A stretch of 64,000 bases of DNA from the NCBI RefSeq assembly GCF_003991155.1, contig NZ_CP031293.1; one strand, written 5' to 3'. Under the pieces are notes generated by a model that was given only the letters and a program-made list of their open reading frames with translations, made no database searches and was not told where the DNA came from. Made by a program: the position numbers and the translations under genes. This document shows, one piece after another, positions 26,705 to 50,094 of this stretch; position 1 is the first letter of the stretch, and each line of letters begins with the position of its first letter. The stretch comes from Escherichia coli. GTDB taxonomy: Bacteria; Pseudomonadota; Gammaproteobacteria; Enterobacterales; Enterobacteriaceae.

Positions 26705-27253
26705 GTGCAAATAACCGAAGCCTTAATTTCAGAGCCGGGAGACATCCGGCGTTTTGTTCAGCAGGCGGTGGACCACTGGCCGCATCTGCTGGCATTTTAC
26801 TTCACACTCCATTCGGCAGAAGGAAATATCAACGGGCGACAGATTCATGCATTCTGTACTTCCTTTTACCGACAGGTGCACGAACGTATTACTGAGCGTA
26901 ATCACACGGCCAGTCCATCCTCGCCGGTGGTATTACGCTGGTTGCGGGAACAACATGGAGGAGCAACAATACGATGCCTGTTGCTGCTCAGCCAGACGAG
27001 CATTTGCCATCCGCGGGCCAGTGCCACGGTTGATGAACAATGTTCGCAAGTGGTGGATTTGCTGCAACAGAGCTGGCAGGTGATAAGTGCTGGCGGACAA
27101 TGCCGGGTGGAAAGGTGTTTTCGGGTTGCCCGGGGTGATACATCCGGCCAGTATGTTGCGTTAAAAACAGTCGCATTGTCTCTGGGGTTACCGGTTGTGA
27201 CCGCCATTACCCATCGTCCGGTACAGCGCTGTACATTGATTACAGCTCAGTGA
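26705..27253 (+). CDS. Hypothetical protein (possibly degenerate YagK/YfjJ-family)
   Basis: 182-aa ORF downstream of alpA. Confidence 0.4.
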   Translation: MQITEALISEPGDIRRFVQQAVDHWPHLLAFYFTLHSAEGNINGRQIHAFCTSFYRQVHERITERNHTASPSSPVVLRWLREQHGGATIRCLLLLSQTSICHPRASATVDEQCSQVVDLLQQSWQVISAGGQCRVERCFRVARGDTSGQYVALKTVALSLGLPVVTAITHRPVQRCTLITAQ

Positions 27254-27484
27254 ATCAGCGCTTTCTGGCTTTTCGTCGGTCATTCTGTCAACGCCACGAT
27301 GTTTGACCGTTATGGGGATGCGGACGATTTCCTGCACAGCGTTGTTTCACGGTGGTGGATGATGCAGCACCGCTGTTAAAAACAGTCGTTCAGTCCTTTG
27401 TGTTACCGGTTATGACAACAATCAGCTGGTGATGGTCGTGTGAACCAGCTGCGCTTCCGTTGATTCTTATGGACTGATAAAGTT

Positions 27485-27859
27485 TTGTCTGCTGAATCTT
27501 TATACGGAATTCTTTTCAGTATGCGTACACGAATTGATTATCTGGCGGATAAATACAGTTTTACTGAGCTGAATGAGTCTCCCCGTCTTCGCCGGCAGTG
27601 GCAGGATGTTCTGGAGGAGTGTCGGCAGACAGAGGCAGGGCCAGAAGAACGGTTGCGTATTGCACTGTTGAATGTGGATTACGTCACCAGTTTTGAACTG
27701 CCTTTTCGCTTGTTGCTTACCCGTACACCACAACTGACTGCTATGCTGCGTGAAGAATGGGATATCAGCCAGAAAAATGTGGTGTTCAACGATAAACGCT
27801 TTGGCTGCGTGTACAGCCTGAAGGCCAGTCTTTGTGGTGTGCTTCAGGCCGATGCTTAG
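27485..27859 (+). CDS. Hypothetical protein
   Basis: 124-aa ORF; no family recognised. Confidence 0.35.
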   Translation: MSAESLYGILFSMRTRIDYLADKYSFTELNESPRLRRQWQDVLEECRQTEAGPEERLRIALLNVDYVTSFELPFRLLLTRTPQLTAMLREEWDISQKNVVFNDKRFGCVYSLKASLCGVLQADA

Positions 27860-27862
27860 GCG

Positions 27863-28315
27863 TTATACGAATCCGGCAGAGTAACGGAAGCCGCGTGTAT
27901 GGCTCATTCCCGGAGAAGAATCCACGATGTGCATGTAAGAGTGCCAACCGACATCACCACGGAAGCCCTGCAGCGTATCGGCAATGGTTTGTTCCAGACC
28001 ATGCCGCTTACAGACCTCGAAATCAGTCACCGTGCAAGGTTCATAACCGCCAATCTGAAATGCCACCACCACAAAATCGGCATCCTGTAAGGCTTCTTTC
28101 TGTTGGGTGTGGCAGGTGATTTTGCCGCTGGCCCCTGCTGAATCCATCAGCTTACGCACCACAATATGCGACTCTTCCCGGCGGGTGGGATCAATGTCCA
28201 TCAGGGCAATATGCGCCGTTTTCAGCGCCTCACGATGGAACACATCACCAAGAATATTTTTAACGAAAATCGTCGAACCAGCGCCGATAAATGTAATTTT
28301 GGGTGCAGACATCAT
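27863..28315 (-). pseudogene. melA: 5' fragment of alpha-galactosidase gene melA (GH4)
   Basis: MMSAPKITFIGAGSTIFVKNILGDVFHREALKTAHIALMDIDP… matches the MelA N-terminus; reading frame ends after ~150 codons. Confidence 0.7.
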
Positions 28316-28596
28316 GCAGATCTCCTGGCTTGCTTGATAACTTCATCATGGCAGGCGAATCTGCAGAAAACCTCCGGCTTCCAGATTGAGAATTCCCATA
28401 AACTCAGATCCTGCGTGAAGCATCAGTAAATCTGAGTTTATGGGAATAAATTACCTGAAAAGAAGAGTTTTCGGCCTCATGATGCTCGGACGGACCCCTC
28501 TCCTCTCTGGGTAGAGGGTGAAAACCGTGCTCCCACTCGCAGTCATCCTCCCTCACTCCTGCCATAATTCTGATATTCCAGGAAAGAGAGCCATCC

Positions 28597-28764
28597 ATGA
28601 ATACAGATCTCTTTATGTGCAGCAGTGCTTTAATCATCCCCGTGCCAGTAATAGCAGGGGTGAAAGATCTCGAAATAACACTGATAATCAGGGCGACGAT
28701 CCCAGCCGGCTTCGCGTTTTTATCGCTGCCTGCCGCGCCTTTCTTCTCCAGCAGCACATTATAG
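28597..28764 (+). pseudogene. melR: Degenerate 5' end of melR (AraC-family melibiose regulator)
   Basis: Frame begins MNTDLFMCSS (MelR N-terminus) then diverges; divergent from the melA fragment across a ~280-bp gap, as in the mel locus. Confidence 0.35.
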
Positions 28765-28801
28765 AGCAGGCGATAAACCTGCTGTACCTCATTACCAATA
28801 A

Positions 28802-28978
28802 CTATCTGGAACTGAAGCCTTTCTCCACCACGCAGATCAGGCCAGGGAGGGCACCAATCTGCGCATTGTTAACCTTTGAGCTGTCGTTGAACTCGGGGTA
28901 AGCAATGGTGAGCATACGGATGTTTTCCGCACCGCCCATCACGTAGAGGATTTTGTCTGCTGTTTCGTTATAGTTCAT
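28802..28978 (-). pseudogene. Degenerate N-terminal fragment of a glucose-family PTS EIIB domain
   Basis: …ADKILYVMGGAENIRML…KVNNAQIGALPGLICVVEKG resembles BglF-type EIIB but lacks the catalytic Cys motif. Confidence 0.3.
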
Positions 28979-29398
28979 AGTGTCCCCTAGTGTTGGCGCA
29001 AAAAAGACCAAAACGGCAGTGGCAATGGCATTCTCCAGCGTTTAAACGGAGAGCCGGATGCGTTGAAAGGTGCTGCTCCGGTTCGGAGAGGAGATACTGG
29101 GAAATAGTTCGACTACCCCCTATCTCTTACTCTACTCTGGACAGGTTAACGATGAGATACCTCACAGTAATATTTGCTCTGTTCGCAAGAAAGCTAGTGG
29201 GATGGGTAATGTTGTTGGACTGAATCGCCACGGATAATCAGGCATTTCTGAGTTGTTTCAAGAAGGCGGCATTATTTGTGCTGCTCGTATCCCGGTCATC
29301 AGTGAACCGGTGAACGTAAATCAGCCGGAGGCACGATTTGGGCAAAAGAGATTTCCTGACAGGCAAGAAGCCAGCGAATGGCTGGCTTCCTGAAGGAT

Positions 29399-30646
29399 TT
29401 AGCCAAATTTAGGTAACACGTTAAAGACGTTACCGAACCAGCATAAAATTACGGTTATACCAAAGAGAATGACAATCGCCGGAATAAGATTGCCGCCCCA
29501 GACTGTGAACATCTGATTGGGAAATTTCTTGCGGGCTTTGATTGCCAGCACTGCGGGAATAATGACCGCCCAGATGGTGGCGCACAGTCCGGCACCGCCG
29601 ATCCCGTAAATAAAGCCGTTCGGGAAGATCAGATACAACAACGCGGGTGGCAGGAAGGTTAACAGCACGGTTTTGAAACGCCCGGCGTGGGAGTTATCAA
29701 TCTTAAACAGATCCGCCAGATAATCGAACAATCCCAGCGTGACACCAAAGAACGAACTGGCAACAGCTAAGTTAGAGAACACCAGCAGGCAAAACTCGAT
29801 AATCCCATGCTGTTTGGTGCCGAGGAATGATTTCACCAGCGAATCAACGTTGCCGCCTGAGGAGATTATCGCCTTAAAGCTTTCTCGCGGGATATTCCCC
29901 ATCGTGCAATAGAGCCAGAAGAGATAAATCACCAGCGCCAGCAGCGAACCGAAGACCACGCTTTTGATTAGCTTATCTTTGCGTTTTCCATAGCAAATAA
30001 TCAGGCTGGGAATATTGCCGTGGAAACCAAATGACGCCAGACACACCGGCAAAGCCATAAAGATATACGGGAAGTAAGACTTACCCGCAGTGGAGCTGGC
30101 TGCATCGCGCAGAATGGAATAATCGGCCTGGAAGAAGAGAGAGCCAAACACGATCACAAAGGAGATAATCTTCAGCCCGAGGAACAATGAGGTAATACGA
30201 CTGGCGGCTAACGAACTTATCCACAATACGCTGGCAACGAAAATGGCTGTGCAGACTCCGACAATACGTGGATTAGCGTGATAACTCAGATTCATTGATA
30301 TCGTTTCGCTAATGATTGCGCCGTTAGCAGAAATATAGGCATAAGTGAGGATATAGAGAACGAAGGCAACGGTAATACCGCTGATAATGTTCCAGGTGTT
30401 ACCGATTAAATCTTTGGCGATGGTGTTAAAACTGGATCCGACGGGATAGTTTAAATTTGCTTCTAATAACAATAACCCGGAATGAAGCATTGAAAACCAG
30501 GCAATGATAAGGATAAAGGCTCCCCAGAAAAACCAGGCACCGGCAAGATCAACAGGTAAAGCAAACATCCCACCGCCAATTACCGTACCGGCTATAACCA
30601 TAACACCCCAAAATGCAGAGTGTTTTTTTTCAGCTTGTTCAGTCAT
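29399..30646 (-). CDS. tnaB: Low-affinity tryptophan permease TnaB
   Basis: 415 aa; matches E. coli TnaB. Confidence 0.9.
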   Translation of the reverse strand: MTEQAEKKHSAFWGVMVIAGTVIGGGMFALPVDLAGAWFFWGAFILIIAWFSMLHSGLLLLEANLNYPVGSSFNTIAKDLIGNTWNIISGITVAFVLYILTYAYISANGAIISETISMNLSYHANPRIVGVCTAIFVASVLWISSLAASRITSLFLGLKIISFVIVFGSLFFQADYSILRDAASSTAGKSYFPYIFMALPVCLASFGFHGNIPSLIICYGKRKDKLIKSVVFGSLLALVIYLFWLYCTMGNIPRESFKAIISSGGNVDSLVKSFLGTKQHGIIEFCLLVFSNLAVASSFFGVTLGLFDYLADLFKIDNSHAGRFKTVLLTFLPPALLYLIFPNGFIYGIGGAGLCATIWAVIIPAVLAIKARKKFPNQMFTVWGGNLIPAIVILFGITVILCWFGNVFNVLPKFG

Positions 30647-30737
30647 GATGCCACCTTTAGATGAAGGCTATTTTTATTATTGAGGATGTAGGGTAAGAGA
30701 GTGGCTAACATCCTTATAGCCACTCTGAGTGTTTTAA

Positions 30738-32153
30738 TTAAACTTCTTTCAGTTTTGCGGTGAAGTGACGCAATACTTTCGGTTCGTAGGTAAAGGTTAA
30801 CCCTTTAATATTCGCCGCGTTCTCTTTCACATGTTTAAAGGCTTCAATAATGAAGTCCATATGTGTTTGAGTATATGTTGCGCGCGGAATGGTTAAACGC
30901 AGCAGTTCAGCCGGGCATGGCAGTTGTTTACCGGTTTTCGGATCGCGGCCTAACAGGAAAGAGCCAATTTCTACCGCACGGATACCGGCGACTTTATACA
31001 GCTCGCAGGCCAGCGCCTGTGCCGGGAACTGATCTGCCGGGATATGCGGCAGTAGTTTACCGGCATCAACGAATGCCGCGTGACCGCCCGCCTGCTGGCA
31101 GACAACGCCAATCTCTTCCAGGCCATCGACCAGATACTGCACCTGCGCAATACGATAAGCCAGCCAGTCCAGATTCATGCCGTCATACAGACCTACCGCC
31201 AGACGCTCCATAGCGCCGCCTTCCAGGCCGCCATATGTCGGGAAGCCTTCCTGCACCACGCAAAGGGTTCTGCATTCGGTGTACACATCAAAGAAGCTGT
31301 CGTCTTTCATGCACAGCAGGCCGCCCATCGGCACCATCGCATCTTTCTTGGCGGACATCGCCAGCATATCGGCATATTTGTAGGTTTCGCGGGTGATTTG
31401 CTCGATGGTCCAGTCTTTGTATTCTGCTTCACGCTGCTTGATGAAATAGGCGTTTTCGGCAAAGCGTGCGGAGTCCATTACCACCGGAATATCGTATTTC
31501 TTCGCGATGCTGTACATCGCTTTTAAGTTTGCCAGTGAAACCGGCTGACCACCTGCGGAGTTACTGGTGATGGTTGCAACGATATACGGCACGTTATTCG
31601 GGCCAACTTCTTCAATACCGCGTTCTAATCCCTCAAGGTCAAAGTTGCCTTTAAAGTCGTAACGCACGCCCGTATCGAAGGCTTCTTTGATATAGACGTT
31701 ACGCACGGTACAGCCGTTAATCTGGCTATGGCCCTGCGTGGTATCAAAGAAATAGTTAGAGAACGCCACCATTTTGCTGCGATCCAGGCCTTTTTCCTGC
31801 TCGCGTTTTTTAATCAGTACCGGAATATAGATTTGCTCTGCACCACGGCCCTGGTGAGTCGGAATAGTGTATTGATAACCAAAGATATTTTTCACTGACT
31901 CGGCTAACGCGTAGTAGCTGCGGCTGCCGCTGTAAGCTTCGTCGCCGCGCATCATCGCGGCCTGCATACTCTGCGTCACCGCCCCGGTACCGCTGTCGGT
32001 CAGTAAATCGATAAACACATCTTCACTATCCAGCAGGAACGGGTTCATGCCGGCTTTAATAATTGCTTCTTCACGATAAGCGCGAGTGGTACGTTTTACT
32101 GGCTCAATAACACGAATGCGGAACGGTTCAGGGAGATGTTTAAAGTTTTCCAT
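30738..32153 (-). CDS. tnaA: Tryptophanase TnaA
   Basis: ORF 30738..32168 trimmed to [11 protein letters not shown] (471 aa); matches E. coli TnaA. Confidence 0.9.
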
Positions 32154-32359
32154 TACGTAATCCTTCATTTATTTTAAGGACAGAAAATTACGGAGATATT
32201 GCAAATGCAATACCCGATAGTTCGCTAAAATATTTGCAAGAGACATCATTTATAAAAATGAATGATAGTCTTTACAAAAGCAGAAATAAGATATGCCAAA
32301 CAGACAGGTTAGATGGAATTCAATCTATTTGACAAAAATGATGGTTACAGAAAGGCAAG

Positions 32360-32434
32360 TTAAGGGTGGTGTTCAACAATCTTGTTGTCGATATTGAACC
32401 ATTTTGAGGTCACACATATATGTAAGATATTCAT
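32360..32434 (-). CDS. tnaC: tna operon leader peptide TnaC (24 aa)
   Basis: Minus-strand ATG AAT ATC TTA CAT ATA TGT GTG ACC TCA AAA TGG TTC AAT ATC GAC AAC AAG ATT GTT … CCT TAA gives MNILHICVTSKWFNIDNKIV..P with Trp12 and Pro24, ~205 bp upstream of tnaA. Confidence 0.75.
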   Translation of the reverse strand: MNILHICVTSKWFNIDNKIVEHHP

Positions 32435-32509
32435 AATGCACTTATCCTCGAAAGACACGAGGTTACAGTATAATACTCAAGAAATTTGTCTATCCTGAAA
32501 TTGTTTAAA

Positions 32510-32525
32510 TGTGAATCGAATCACA
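32510..32525 (-). promoter_or_regulatory. CRP (CAP) binding site of the tna promoter
   Basis: TGTGAatcgaaTCACA perfect consensus half-sites ~80 bp upstream of tnaC; tna promoter is known to be CRP-dependent. Confidence 0.55.
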
Positions 32526-33488: not shown

Positions 33489-34883
33489 TTAGCGAAGCCA
33501 GTTTTTCCGGCCTACGGCTACTCCCCGTAAGGCGTTCTCTGCGATGTTGTTGTCGATTTCCACCCAGCCATTGCTGCAGTACACGTTCAGGCCATCCCAC
33601 TGTTTCAGCAGGTATGCGAACGCTTTTGCCGTATCTGAGTGACGCGACAGTGTTTTCATCTGTTGCTGTATCCAGTCATACAGTGACTGCATCAGTGGCG
33701 CGGCTCTGGCTTTTCTTGCCGCCAGACGCTGTTCTGCTGAACAGCCCCGGACCTCTGCCTCGATGGCATACAGTTCACCGATACGCTGCAGGGCTTCCGT
33801 GGTGATGTAGGTGGGCGCTCTTGCATGCACATCGTGGATTTTTCTCCGGGCATGAGCCATACACGCGGCTTCCGTTATTCTGCCGGATTCGTATAACGCC
33901 CGGTAACCACCGTAAGCATCGGCCTGAAGCACACCGCTGTAACCGGCCAGGTGATTTTGTGGATGGATACCTTTCCGGTCCGGACTGTACGCGAACCAGA
34001 CCGCCGGGGGCATCTGTGAACCGGCGTTACGGTCATCACGGACGTAGACCCACAGCCGGGCTGTCCGGGTTTTACCGCTGCCCGGCTCCTGGACCGGGAC
34101 GGGGATATCATCAGCATGGACTTTACCGGGCATCAGCACATACTGGCGCAGGACGTCATACAGCGGCTCCAGCAGTTCAGCAACAGCACCTGTCCAGCGC
34201 CCCAGTGTGGCACGGCTCAGCTCCACTCCCTGACGACGGTATATTTCTGACTGGCGGTATAACGGCAGATGGTCTGCATATTTCCCGGTGACAACATGGG
34301 CCAGAAGCCCCGCTCCGGCATAACTGCGTGCAATGGGTTTTGAAGGTACTGGTGCCTGCACGATATGGTCGCACCGGCAACAGGCCTGTTTCGGACGTTG
34401 TGTTTCGATAACCTTAAAGGCGCTGCTGATAAGCTCCAGTTGCTCTGACACATCACATCCCAGAGAACTGAGTTCACCACCACAGGCAGGACAGCATTCC
34501 TCTTCCGGCCGGATAACCCGGGTTTCACGGGGAAGTGAGGCCGGTAACGGTTTACGGGCTGAAGACTGGCGCAGGGCGGATGGCAGTACCGGGTCATATT
34601 GCTCACCCAGCGTTTCCGCCATTTCTTCCTGAAGTGCGCTGATTCGCTCCTGTGCTTCCTGTATCTGCCGTTCGGTTTTTGCACGAAGTTTTTCTGAGCT
34701 TTTACCGAACTGCATACGTTGCAGTTTCGCAACCAGCGCCTTCAGCCGGTTGATTTCGGAAGCATAAGCCGCCACCCGCTGTGAGAGCAGGCGGTTGTAT
34801 TCAGCCATCTGGCGGATGGTGTCCTGTTGCGTCTGCAACAGTGCCCGCAGGCGGGCGTTCTCATGAGCAAGTGAGGTGTCCAT
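33489..34883 (-). CDS. IS66-family transposase TnpC (orf3), C-terminally truncated
   Basis: 464 aa with the CxxC…CxxC zinc-finger region and DDE domain typical of IS66 TnpC. Confidence 0.75.
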
Positions 34884-44157: not shown

Positions 44158-44455
44158 AGTCTCCTTTCTCAAAATCAGGCTTCGTGCATCTGGTCACAAA
44201 CCCGTATATCAATCATCATTGATGAGAAATTATCTTTATGAGGGCGTTTTTTTGGTTTCAGTTTTGCACGGAACCAGGAGATTTTTGGGAGTTGTTTTAT
44301 GTATGTTGTAAATAAAATTTTAATATTGACATCTACTGTACGTGCATAGAGTACGCCGGTGACCAACGTCAGCATTCCACTGTTCCAGTAACTAATTAAC
44401 GTAAGTGAAGTTATCGAGGAAGCAATACTGGATGGAGAAGTCGTCCTTGAGGTAT

Positions 44456-44737
44456 TCACTTTCCTTTCGTTCTGCCCATTAGTGGACAGCTAACTAGTGG
44501 CAGGACATCGGAGTACAGCACCTTCCCGTTGTTATTTATCAGCACGGCAGCTTTCTGGTTATTGACGAGCACAGTTTTCACGCCGCCGCCAAAGTTGTGG
44601 AAGACTCGCACCAGTGACTCATGGGTATGTTCAGCATCCTGTATGGGGCAGCAAAGAGATAGAAGCGACGTGAGAACCCCCTGCGTATTAGTCGCGAAGT
44701 TAATGCAGCATCGTTGTCTGACCAGTACCCCAGTCAT
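44456..44737 (-). pseudogene. IS21-family IstA transposase fragment
   Basis: …DAEHTHESLVRVFHNFGGGVKTVLVNNQKAAVLINNNGKV… matches the IstA segment …DAEHTYESLVRAFRYFGGCVKTVLVDNQKAAVLKNNNGKV…. Confidence 0.55.
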
Positions 44738-44952
44738 GCTGGAGCTGGTAATCCGGCTGAGTTTTGAAGCGAACCGTTTTCTTCGATTTCCGTCTGGGAA
44801 GTAATCAGACTCAGCACGGACAAAAATTGCAGCGCCCGGATGGCACGGGTAATGGTCAGATTACCGGATGCGGATTAGGTGCCGCGTAGTGAAGCGCGCC
44901 GGATTCAGAGTCGCTAGTATGGTCATACAGCGAAGGAAAGCCGCCAATTTTT

Positions 44953-45225
44953 GTGCCGGACGTGGAATATACAGCGAATGCTGATGTAAAAGGCGCTCGT
45001 AATATTTTAGCTGCGGGACATACTGTGCTTGCCAGGGAAGGGATGGTGCAGTCAGACCACCCGTTGAAGCGAAATGAACCTGAACCATACGACAACCTGA
45101 AAGTAGCAGGAATCCACGCCCTGAAGGACGTGGAGGAAGTCAAATCGATGGTAGGTTGTAGGTTTATGGCAACATCTGCTTCATTAGATACATGTCGATA
45201 TACAGAACATATATCACATTTATGA
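44953..45225 (+). pseudogene. 3' fragment of an IS200/IS605-family tnpB (RNA-guided nuclease) gene
   Basis: …ANADVKGARNILAAGHTVLAREGMVQ… resembles the conserved TnpB C-terminus; no N-terminal part upstream. Confidence 0.4.
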
Positions 45226-47205: not shown

Positions 47206-47541
47206 ATGTTTAGAACAGAAGACATCATCGATGAGATAACCCAATGGATTGATTCAAATTTACATAAGCCGCTGAAGATAGAGGATGTTGCTGCGCGGGC
47301 AGGATACTCGAGGTGGCATCTTCAGCGGATTTTTGTGCAGGTGAGAGAAATTAGCCTTGGGAAGTACATAAGAGATACGAAACTTAGACTTGCAGCAAAA
47401 GATCTTATCGCGACTAATGAGCCAGTGATGGTTATCGCCTTTAAATATGGATTCGATTCACAACAAACTTTTACTCGGATTTTCTTTAAAAAATATAAAT
47501 TGCCACCATTGAAATATAGGGTAATGACTCCAACTTATTGA
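47206..47541 (+). CDS. MarA/SoxS-like small AraC-family regulator, C-terminus replaced by IS1 insertion
   Basis: 111-aa ORF with two HTH motifs; its last 7 codons lie inside IS1. Confidence 0.6.
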
Positions 47542-48038
47542 TAGTGTTTTATGTTCAGATAATGCCCGATGACTTTGTCATGCAGCTCCACCGATTTTGA
47601 AAACGACAGCGACTTCCGTCCCAGCCGTGCCAGGTGCTGCCTCAGATTCAGGTTATGCCGCTCAATTCGCTGCGTATATCGCTTGCTGATTACGTGCAGC
47701 TTTCCCTTCAGGCGGGATTCATACAGCGGCCAGCCATCCGTCATCCATATCACCACGTCAAAGGGTGACAGCAGGCTCATAAGACGCCCCAGCGTCGCCA
47801 TAGTGCGTTCACCGAATACGTGCGCAACAACCGTCTTCCGGAGCCTGTCATACGCGTAAAACAGCCAGCGCTGGCGCGATTTAGCCCCGACGTATCCCCA
47901 CTGTTCGTCCATTTCCGCGCAGACGATGACGTCACTGCCCGGCTGTATGCGCGAGGTTACCGACTGCGGCCTGAGTTTTTTAAATGGCGGAAAATCGTGT
48001 TGAGGCCAACGCCCATAATGCGGGCGGTTGCCCGGCAT
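47535..48038 (-). CDS. insB: IS1 transposase InsB
   Basis: 167 aa matching IS1 InsB. Confidence 0.9.
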
Positions 48039-48232
48039 CCAACGCCATTCATGGCCATATCAATGATTTTCTGGTGCGTACCGGGTTGAGAAGCGGTGTA
48101 AGTGAACTGCAGTTGCCATGTTTTACGGCAATGAGAGCAGAGATAGCGCTGATGTCCGGCGGTGCTTTTGCCGTTACGCACCACTCCGTCAGTAGCTGAA
48201 CAGGAGGGACAGCTGATAGAAACAGAAGCCAC
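47957..48232 (-). CDS. insA: IS1 InsA
   Basis: 91 aa matching IS1 InsA (zinc finger CPSC…CSHC). Confidence 0.9.
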
Positions 48233-48522
48233 TGGAGCACCTCAAAAACACCATCATACACTAAATCAGTAAGTTGGCAGCATCACCGAAATATAGAAAC
48301 GCGGAAAGGAGAAAAAAACTTCACCAGCCCATGTCTTAAGTTCTGTCAGTATGGCTACAGCCTGTTTGCTGAGTGGCACAAGGTGTGGTGTTCGAATCTT
48401 GGTTCCCCAATGAGAGTTCAGGCGGTGTGGGCAAATAAAAAAGAAAACATAAATAAAACCATCCGACCGTTGGTGGGGCTGGATGGTTATTCATTATTTC
48501 TATGTCACTGAACTTTCATTCA

Positions 48523-49704
48523 TCAGATCTGCTCAGAAAGTGAATCAATGTAGTCAGCATACCACTGCATCATTTCACGGCGACCATCCAGATACTGGGC
48601 ATGATTATAGGTACCTCTGATAGCGTTTTTATCCATATGAGCTAACTGCATTTCAATCCAGGCAGAATTAAAGCCCTGTTCGTGCAGAATTGTACTCATG
48701 GTGTGTCTGAAACCGTGCCCTGTGAGTCTTCCCTTATATCCTAGTAATTCAATGACTTGGTTTATGCTTTCCTTACTAATTGGTTTGCGAGGATCGTTCC
48801 TACCGATAAAGACCAGAGGATGATGTTTTGAGATTGGTTCAAGTTGCTTAAATAGCGCAATGACCTGCTCAGAGAGCGGCACAATATGAGGTCGCTTCAT
48901 CTTCATTACTTCTGCCGGGATCTCCCATAATTTTGTCTCAAAATCGATATCCTCCCAGCGTGCGAAACGCAATTCTTGAGTTCGTACACCAGTTAGCATA
49001 ATGATTTGAGTGGCTGTCTTAGTGATAATACTTCCGGTATAACCCGCCAGATCATTGAGGAAGTGGGGAAGTTCATTAGCAGTAAGAAAGGGAAAATGTA
49101 CTTTTTTCGGTGTAGCTAAAGCACTGGCAAGATCGGGAGCAGGGTTGTAGTTAGCCCGACCAGTAACAATTGCATAGCGGAACACCTCTCCACAGCGCTG
49201 GCGGACCTTACGCATTTTCTCCAGAGCTCCACGTTTTTCCATTTTACGCAATGCTTCCAGTAACTCCATTGGTTTGATTTCAGCAATAGGGCGTTTGCCA
49301 ATATAGGGAAAAATATCTTTTTCAAAGGTATCAATGATTTCATCACGATAGCGTAATGACCACCGATCGGCTTTTGACTGATGCCATTCTCGAGCAACGG
49401 CCTCAAATGTGTTTTTCAAACTCATTTGCAGCGCGATTTTTTCTTCTTTTTTTGTCTCACCCGGATCGCATCCTGCAGCGAGGATTTTCCTAGCTTCACT
49501 GCGTTTTTCGCGAGCGTCGGCTAGAGTTACATCGGGGTATACGCCAATAGAAAGCATCTTTTCTTTGCCAGCAAAGCGGTACTTCATACGCCAATATTTA
49601 GAACCATTAGTGTTAATGAGTAGATACATACCGCCACCATCAGACAGCTTATAGGGCTTTTCTTTTGGTTTTGCGGTTTTCACTTTAATATCAGTTAACG
49701 CCAT
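48523..49704 (-). CDS. P4-type tyrosine integrase (site-specific recombinase)
   Basis: 393 aa; catalytic HGFRHT and C-terminal Tyr region; immediately adjacent to selC. Confidence 0.9.
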   Translation of the reverse strand: MALTDIKVKTAKPKEKPYKLSDGGGMYLLINTNGSKYWRMKYRFAGKEKMLSIGVYPDVTLADAREKRSEARKILAAGCDPGETKKEEKIALQMSLKNTFEAVAREWHQSKADRWSLRYRDEIIDTFEKDIFPYIGKRPIAEIKPMELLEALRKMEKRGALEKMRKVRQRCGEVFRYAIVTGRANYNPAPDLASALATPKKVHFPFLTANELPHFLNDLAGYTGSIITKTATQIIMLTGVRTQELRFARWEDIDFETKLWEIPAEVMKMKRPHIVPLSEQVIALFKQLEPISKHHPLVFIGRNDPRKPISKESINQVIELLGYKGRLTGHGFRHTMSTILHEQGFNSAWIEMQLAHMDKNAIRGTYNHAQYLDGRREMMQWYADYIDSLSEQI

Positions 49705-49998: not shown

Positions 49999-50023
49999 TT
50001 GGCGGAAGATCACAGGAGTCGAA
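49999..50023. repeat. attL core: 25-bp direct repeat overlapping the 3' end of selC
   Basis: Identical to 4873..4897. Confidence 0.8.
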
Positions 50024-50094
50024 CCTGCCCGGGACCGCTGGCGGCCCCAACTGGATTTGAAGTCCAGCCGCCTCACCGGAGACGACGATCTTCC
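50000..50094 (-). tRNA. selC: tRNA-Sec (selenocysteine tRNA)
   Basis: Reverse complement matches the 95-nt E. coli selC sequence GGAAGATCGTCGTCTCCGGTGAGGCGGCTGGACTTCAAATCCAGTTGGGGCCGCCAGCGGTCCCGGGCAGGTTCGACTCCTGTGATCTTCCGCCA. Confidence 0.95.

Follow-up and report, generated by a model that had tools for sequence, protein, structure and literature searches.

Truncated mel, PTS, insertion-sequence and intron fragments in a selC genomic island of Escherichia coli: probable debris of microhomology deletions

In Escherichia coli K-12, the control region of melR and melAB contains five 18-bp MelR sites, two CRP sites and the melR -10 hexamer CATAAT (Samarasinghe et al. 2008, PMC2377442). The tRNA-linked genomic islands of the selC type, harboring a P4-like integrase, combine a tyrosine integrase at tRNA-Sec and a CP4-like backbone with many IS fragments, pseudogenes and metabolic cargo. 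Operons formed by licT, a GH1 phospho-beta-glucosidase gene and a PTS IIABC gene are found in the Klebsiella oxytoca complex, in Raoultella and on a Pantoea plasmid. It is also known that illegitimate recombination between short homologies generates deletions in enterobacteria. The locus analysed here shares traits with each of these systems, eight segments from at least five sources being packed within 1.9 kb.

The locus is embedded in a 64,000-nucleotide stretch of an E. coli genome (assembly GCF_003991155.1, contig NZ_CP031293.1), referred to as the window. The window contains an island of about 45 kb located between setC and the tRNA-Sec gene (selC), with setC and yicJ flanking it. The tRNA-Sec gene lies at 50000-50094 and is adjoined by a tyrosine recombinase gene (48523-49704), and the whole island proves to be inserted between setC and selC when the gene order is compared with that of K-12, as expected for a selC island. 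According to the PGAP annotation, it includes a CP4-like backbone, numerous IS fragments, metabolic cargo and the remnant of an IncFII repA. The comparison with other tRNA-linked islands did not disclose any categorical difference, except that the local density of pieces is high here. Nearer the integrase, at about 44400-45100 (PGAP annotation of L001, 36996-37685), a 93-nt IncFII RepA fragment and an InsQ/TnpB-family fragment are found; these suggest the passage of part of the island cargo through a plasmid. Moreover, a 42-nt direct repeat (27160-27201 and 27375-27416, 79% identical; GTTAAAAACAGTCG...GTTACCGGTT.TGAC) lies between genes of the CP4-like backbone, upstream of an ECs1377-family gene.

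The region 27400-29400 is present, 100% identical and at the same chromosomal site, in 21 out of 5,426 complete E. coli genomes, sequenced independently from humans, cattle, pigs, sheep, dogs, mink and wastewater. In the same 5,426 genomes the pieces are never joined outside these 21 carriers, and none of 72,556 plasmids harbors the mosaic. Since all 21 carriers are identical, they convey no evolutionary signal, neither for nor against selection. One of them, AR Bank #0349 (NZ_CP041996.1), is identical to the window across the mosaic and differs from the whole window by one mismatch and a 768-bp IS1 insertion. The window has this IS1 (47520-48287; ORFs for InsA and InsB, 9-bp target duplication), whereas AR Bank #0349 does not; thus, the window represents a different member of the carrier lineage.

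The pieces, whose identity and extent were observed directly, and their surroundings are the following:

27521-27842, plus strand: ECs1377-family ("DNA-binding protein") backbone gene, 5' half only (NF052300)
27836-27981, plus strand: internal fragment of an IS66-family tnpC, nucleotides ~949-1106 of 1572 (alignment)
27863-28315, minus strand: hybrid 150-aa ORF, MelA residues 1-115 followed by 35 residues of antisense IS66 (ORF, alignment, Pfam)
27971-28315, minus strand: melA codons 1-115, start codon and Shine-Dalgarno sequence intact (alignment with K-12 and other E. coli, PF02056)
28316-28596, no strand: complete melR-melA intergenic control region, 281 bp (282 bp in K-12) (alignment)
28597-28626, plus strand: melR codons 1-10 (alignment)
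28597-28764, plus strand: hybrid 55-aa ORF, from the melR start codon and then antisense through the PTS fragment (ORF)
28620-29014, minus strand: 5' fragment of a beta-glucoside-type PTS IIABC gene, about codons 1-126 and a 36-nt leader, ATG at 28978 (alignments, TIGR01995)
29018-29135, plus strand: group II intron, 3' end only, from the last part of domain IV through domains V-VI (Rfam, alignment)
29136-29216, plus strand: fragment of an IS3-family orfB, the 3' exon of the intron (homology running into the annotated IS3 transposase of strain YPE10)
29217-29308, no strand: 92-nt stretch separating the IS3 fragment from the region downstream of tnaB
29309-32525, minus strand: second tnaCAB operon, intact, including the promoter region with the CRP site and the terminator of tnaB (alignment, ORFs)
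29399-30646, 30738-32153 and 32360-32434, all minus strand: tnaB, tnaA and tnaC, respectively, all intact (ORFs)

A preliminary description of this DNA had recognized in it a 5' fragment of melA, the intergenic region and about ten codons of melR in their native divergent order, and had proposed an alignment with the K-12 locus as a check. This alignment confirms the similarity: positions 27971-28625 share 96.8% identity with K-12 melR-melA over 656 columns (20 mismatches and one gap), and all the matches for the mel and PTS pieces have BLAST E values of 1e-82 or lower, which leaves no room for chance similarity. The divergent order is the same as in K-12, the intergenic region is of nearly equal length and both start codons are identical; unlike the K-12 locus, however, the island piece is ectopic, lying in the selC island, and privately mutated. 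It is also incomplete, since melA ends at codon 115 (of 451), melR at codon 10 (of 302) and melB is absent. The Pfam PF02056 (GH4) match spans residues 6-115 of the 150-aa ORF (E=4e-41) and is limited to profile positions 1-109 of 183, so that the Glyco_hydro_4 N-terminal domain is truncated and the C-terminal one is absent; the NF011657 profile scored 170.9 bits against a cut-off of 486, and PGAP calls the piece a pseudogene with a missing C-terminus.

The MelR sites were placed on the window coordinates by combining the published architecture with the alignment. Two predicted 18-bp MelR consensus sites in inverted orientation (28392-28409 and 28430-28447), visible also as an inverted self-match, have the K-12 sequence, as does the predicted melR -10 hexamer CATAAT (28563-28568). 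Decay lesions were observed directly as well: codon 5 of melR has changed from ACG to CTC, a private change; there are other private substitutions, and one nucleotide is missing from the melA 5' UTR. Some of the substitutions adjoin MelR site 2, at the expected place of site 2', and one more falls in the spacer between sites 1 and 2.

The preliminary description had placed the mel and PTS remnants at 27863-29011. The content holds true, whereas the left coordinate does not, since positions 27863-27970 are IS66-derived; the last 35 codons of the 150-aa ORF being antisense IS66, that coordinate marks the end of an ORF rather than the end of homology. For annotation purposes, the 150-aa "MelA-like" ORF and the 55-aa ORF are artefacts that should not be called genes.

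The adjoining PTS piece shares 77-83% nucleotide identity with intact genes for beta-glucoside-specific PTS IIABC proteins. It carries four independent deletions (1, 11, 1 and 9 nt) relative to all of the four intact homologues compared, and the IIB active-site motif HCATRLR is not in frame, because a 1-nt deletion just upstream and the 11-nt deletion remove or shift it. No match to the Pfam EIIB domain was found in the piece, and TIGR01995 gave E=6e-4 and 18.4 bits against a cut-off of 614.7; with about 126 codons left, it has neither the score nor the IIB-IIC-IIA order that define PRK09824/TIGR01995 members. PGAP calls it frameshifted and lacking the C-terminus. Given these two profile results, the wording used previously, a degenerate N-terminal fragment of a glucose-family PTS protein, is accurate, the type being specified here as beta-glucoside IIABC.

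Concerning its origin, 5,393 of the 5,426 E. coli genomes have no counterpart of the PTS piece, and in 12 non-carrier E. coli the homologue belongs to an intact accessory licT-GH1-PTS operon (77-82%). Among the GTDB species representatives, the closest full-length relatives are those of K. oxytoca (83%), K. michiganensis and K. grimontii (both 81%) and Raoultella (78%); a partial match was also found in K. indica (116 nt, 89%). No mel sequence was detected near the Klebsiella and Raoultella homologues by a GTDB-wide exact-pattern scan. The coding sequence starts with 32 nt that are exactly those of the licT-GH1-PTS operons, although the island keeps just the 5' 395 nt, IIC, IIA, the GH1 gene and licT being absent and the frame being destroyed. 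On these sequence comparisons, the piece derives from an accessory operon and is Klebsiella/Raoultella-like, no sampled genome being its actual donor (best identity 83%). Hence, the proposal that the mel and PTS fragments are chromosomal remnants applies to the former and not to the latter.

To the right, the mosaic continues into a group II intron and an IS3 element, a continuation that the preliminary description had missed. Rfam RF00029 matches positions 29049-29135 (50.1 bits, gathering score 40, E=5e-8), and other E. coli have introns with ltrA, inserted in IS3-family elements, to which the piece shows 81-87% identity. The homology to these introns begins at 29018, in the last ~27 nt of ltrA; thus, the domain V/VI core is present, while domains I-IV and the reverse transcriptase/maturase ORF are absent. 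This core was the sole match when the interval 27000-31500 was scanned for structured RNAs, including bgl-type antiterminator targets and riboswitches. The following 92 nt (29217-29308) have no match in E. coli genomes outside the 21 carriers.

On the left, an intact homologue shares 90% identity with the ECs1377-family gene as far as position 27842; NCBIfam NF052300 matches this gene along profile positions 1-92 of 190 (E=2e-45), and PGAP considers it partial, with a missing C-terminus. The IS66 piece, in which PGAP reports both termini as missing, contains a 12-nt internal deletion between TTAC repeats, that is, a slippage deletion. None of the hallmarks of an IS66-family element or composite transposon (terminal inverted repeats, tnpA-tnpB-tnpC, target-site duplication) is associated with it. 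Two inverted IS66 homologies (27859-27981 and 33778-33900), 94% complementary over 123 nt, surround a 5.8-kb block; the right one belongs to a truncated ISCro1-like IS66 element, and an IS110 fragment is also found right of tnaC. These homologies may be the trace of an earlier IS66-mediated rearrangement.

At each boundary, the window was then aligned with sequences related to the two parents, and three junctions could be resolved; what follows was read directly from these alignments. At the junction between the ECs1377-family gene and IS66, the heptamer GGTGTGC (27836-27842) is common to both parents (7 bp). At the IS66/melA junction (27971-27981) the parents have CGTATCGG in common, or CAGCGTATCGG when one natural melA allele is taken for comparison (8-11 bp). 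At the melR/PTS junction (28620-28627) the shared sequence is CAGCAG(C)G, the parents having CAGCAGCG and the window CAGCAGTG (6-8 bp). These lengths are approximate, since the parents are represented by relatives with 78-97% identity and not by the true parental sequences. The chance of at least 6 bp being shared at a blunt join is ~2e-4 per junction (about 1 in 4,000), so that three joins with at least six shared bases point to microhomology-mediated illegitimate recombination. No IS terminus was found at any of the three resolved junctions, and in all three the surviving parts have the orientation that a simple deletion between two genes would produce; as an example, the 5' end of melR (plus strand) faces the 5' end of the PTS gene (minus strand), which is the product of a deletion between convergent genes. 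The 6-11 bp shared per junction, the lack of IS ends and the deletion-like geometry agree with the deletions at microhomologies of enterobacteria, except that the mechanism is read here from its end products alone. The earlier suggestion that the edges of the pieces are recombination breakpoints is borne out in this respect. As regards the present junctions, a capture of pieces through IS ends was rejected, since the IS66 piece is internal to tnpC. The junction sequences can be used as lineage markers of this selC island variant (21/5,426 genomes).

On the whole, the interval is very probably made of non-functional debris of acquired genes, trimmed within the selC island by microhomology deletions. 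According to this model, a larger mosaic would once have stood beside the extra tnaCAB operon of the island, in the order backbone, IS66 element, melBA, melR, licT-GH1-PTS, intron-in-IS3 and tnaBAC, with the mel genes of another E. coli lineage, a beta-glucoside operon of Klebsiella type and a group II intron inserted in an IS3. At least three successive RecA-independent deletions between microhomologies of 6-11 bp would have cut most of this array away, leaving as survivors the 5' ends that point away from each deletion. We infer that the joins are deletions within a once-contiguous array rather than the result of end-joining of unrelated DNA. The search for an ancestral or intermediate form, i.e., a longer mel or PTS sequence in the same island, gave no result among 5,426 E. 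coli genomes, 72,556 plasmids and the GTDB species representatives, and the series of deletions is therefore a reconstruction.

Other ways of assembling the mosaic can be weighed against this one. The mel piece might be an ectopic duplication or a gene-conversion copy of the mel locus of the host, as the presence of two mel matches (the island copy and the native locus) in each of the 21 carriers could let one think. Yet the identity of the piece with the native locus of AR Bank #0349 is only 96.0% (25 differing positions and one gap in 656 columns), while it reaches 97.3% with the best of the other, unrelated E. coli strains (655 nt; ~5,400 genomes), and the CTC codon 5 of melR is absent from all the ~4,270 native alleles matched; a copy of host origin is thus extremely unlikely, and a local duplication was rejected, the native locus being less similar than those of other strains. 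The best allele differs from the piece by only ~1.4% within melA, which indicates an E. coli-like donor lineage. The piece is an acquired foreign E. coli allele, in agreement with the original idea that these fragments were carried in or captured by the island. A different scenario is that IS66-family elements moved or inverted the 5.8-kb block from mel' to tnaC as a composite unit, the mel and PTS sequences being passengers. The inverted homologies described above and the presence of tnpA, tnpB and tnpC of the IS66 family right of tnaC speak in its favor; against it, the left copy is a 146-nt internal fragment of tnpC that lacks terminal repeats, the right copy is cut short by the IS110 fragment, and the block has neither flanking IS ends nor target-site duplications, its joins being microhomologies. 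Such an event, which we consider unlikely, could be an earlier step, and it leaves the present junctions unexplained. Lastly, the probability of a chimeric contig or assembly artefact is close to nil: apart from the unusual density of junctions nothing points to it, and the same 2-kb region is 100% identical in 21 complete genomes sequenced independently.

The other question is whether any of the pieces works. No indication of function was found for the pieces of the mosaic, and neither the ORF list nor the PGAP annotation contains an intact gene downstream of either mel promoter; we infer that they have no function at present. One might suppose, nonetheless, that the retained mel region is still a bidirectional promoter responsive to MelR and CRP and having a role, such as driving the 150-aa MelA' and 55-aa MelR' ORFs, producing an antisense RNA over tnaB-tnaA or acting as a MelR decoy. 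The whole 281-bp intergenic region has been kept while the genes on both sides were cut; the two MelR consensus sites, the melR -10, both ATGs and the Shine-Dalgarno sequence of melA show no change with respect to the published architecture (PMC2377442); no terminator-like site exists on the plus strand from the melR start to tnaB, and the intact native melR of AR Bank #0349 could act in trans. Nevertheless, such retention is expected by chance if two independent deletions each end in a flanking gene, the hybrid ORFs are accidental read-throughs in which the family match is confined to the MelA part, a single extra set of binding sites would be negligible as a decoy, and the 21 identical carriers offer no signal of conservation. 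In addition, the control region itself is altered by the substitutions around MelR site 2 and in the spacer, and by the deletion in the melA 5' UTR. An active promoter with a role is therefore very improbable, and it is hardly credible that the region was kept because it had been co-opted as a MelR/CRP bidirectional promoter, with rightward transcription from the melR promoter running antisense to tnaB-tnaA; if this were true, the indole output of the second tna operon would be coupled to melibiose or cAMP signals. Some residual MelR- and CRP-dependent transcription from the control region, including antisense transcription toward tnaB, may occur, judging from the conserved sites. A scan for sigma-70 promoters and terminators gave counts at the level of shuffled sequences, such a scan being blind to the activator-dependent mel promoters. 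As debris, the mosaic is ordinary, its pieces (melA, PTS IIABC, IS66) being already flagged as pseudogenes by PGAP in public annotation, and it matters little in itself; it is, however, a clean small example of the erosion of island cargo.

The intact and diverged second tnaCAB operon represents a more interesting piece of biology than the debris adjoining it. It was found in the 21 carrier genomes alone, whose distribution was read directly from the genome search, and a literature search returned no description of a selC island with a second tryptophanase operon. In AR Bank #0349 the native tnaCAB is still present, adjoining mnmE/mdtL, and shares 94.9% nucleotide identity with that of the island, which reaches 95.1% at most with the native operons of other E. 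coli (~5,400 genomes). At the protein level, the island and native copies of AR Bank #0349 are 99.8% (TnaA) and 97.6% (TnaB) identical, and TnaC differs by D21E and R23H.

Two minor observations concern the mel sequences. The preliminary description had suggested a search for an intact mel operon elsewhere in the genome, and the native locus of AR Bank #0349 (NZ_CP041996.1, 4469021-4472214) does harbor intact melR and melA genes; a 1,665-bp segment with melB is missing, however, and yjdF abuts melA, so that both mel loci of the strain are remnants and a gene for the melibiose permease is absent. In the island, three copies of the heptamer AGATCTC lie within 350 nt. The copy at 28318-28324 is native and lies at the melA start; that at 28605-28611 was made by the three adjacent substitutions of melR codon 5, 9 nt from the junction; and that at 28665-28671 comes from clustered private substitutions in the PTS piece, the homologues having GGTGGTC on the same strand. 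These copies could be a junction-associated mutation cluster, the outcome of short-patch conversion or a coincidence.
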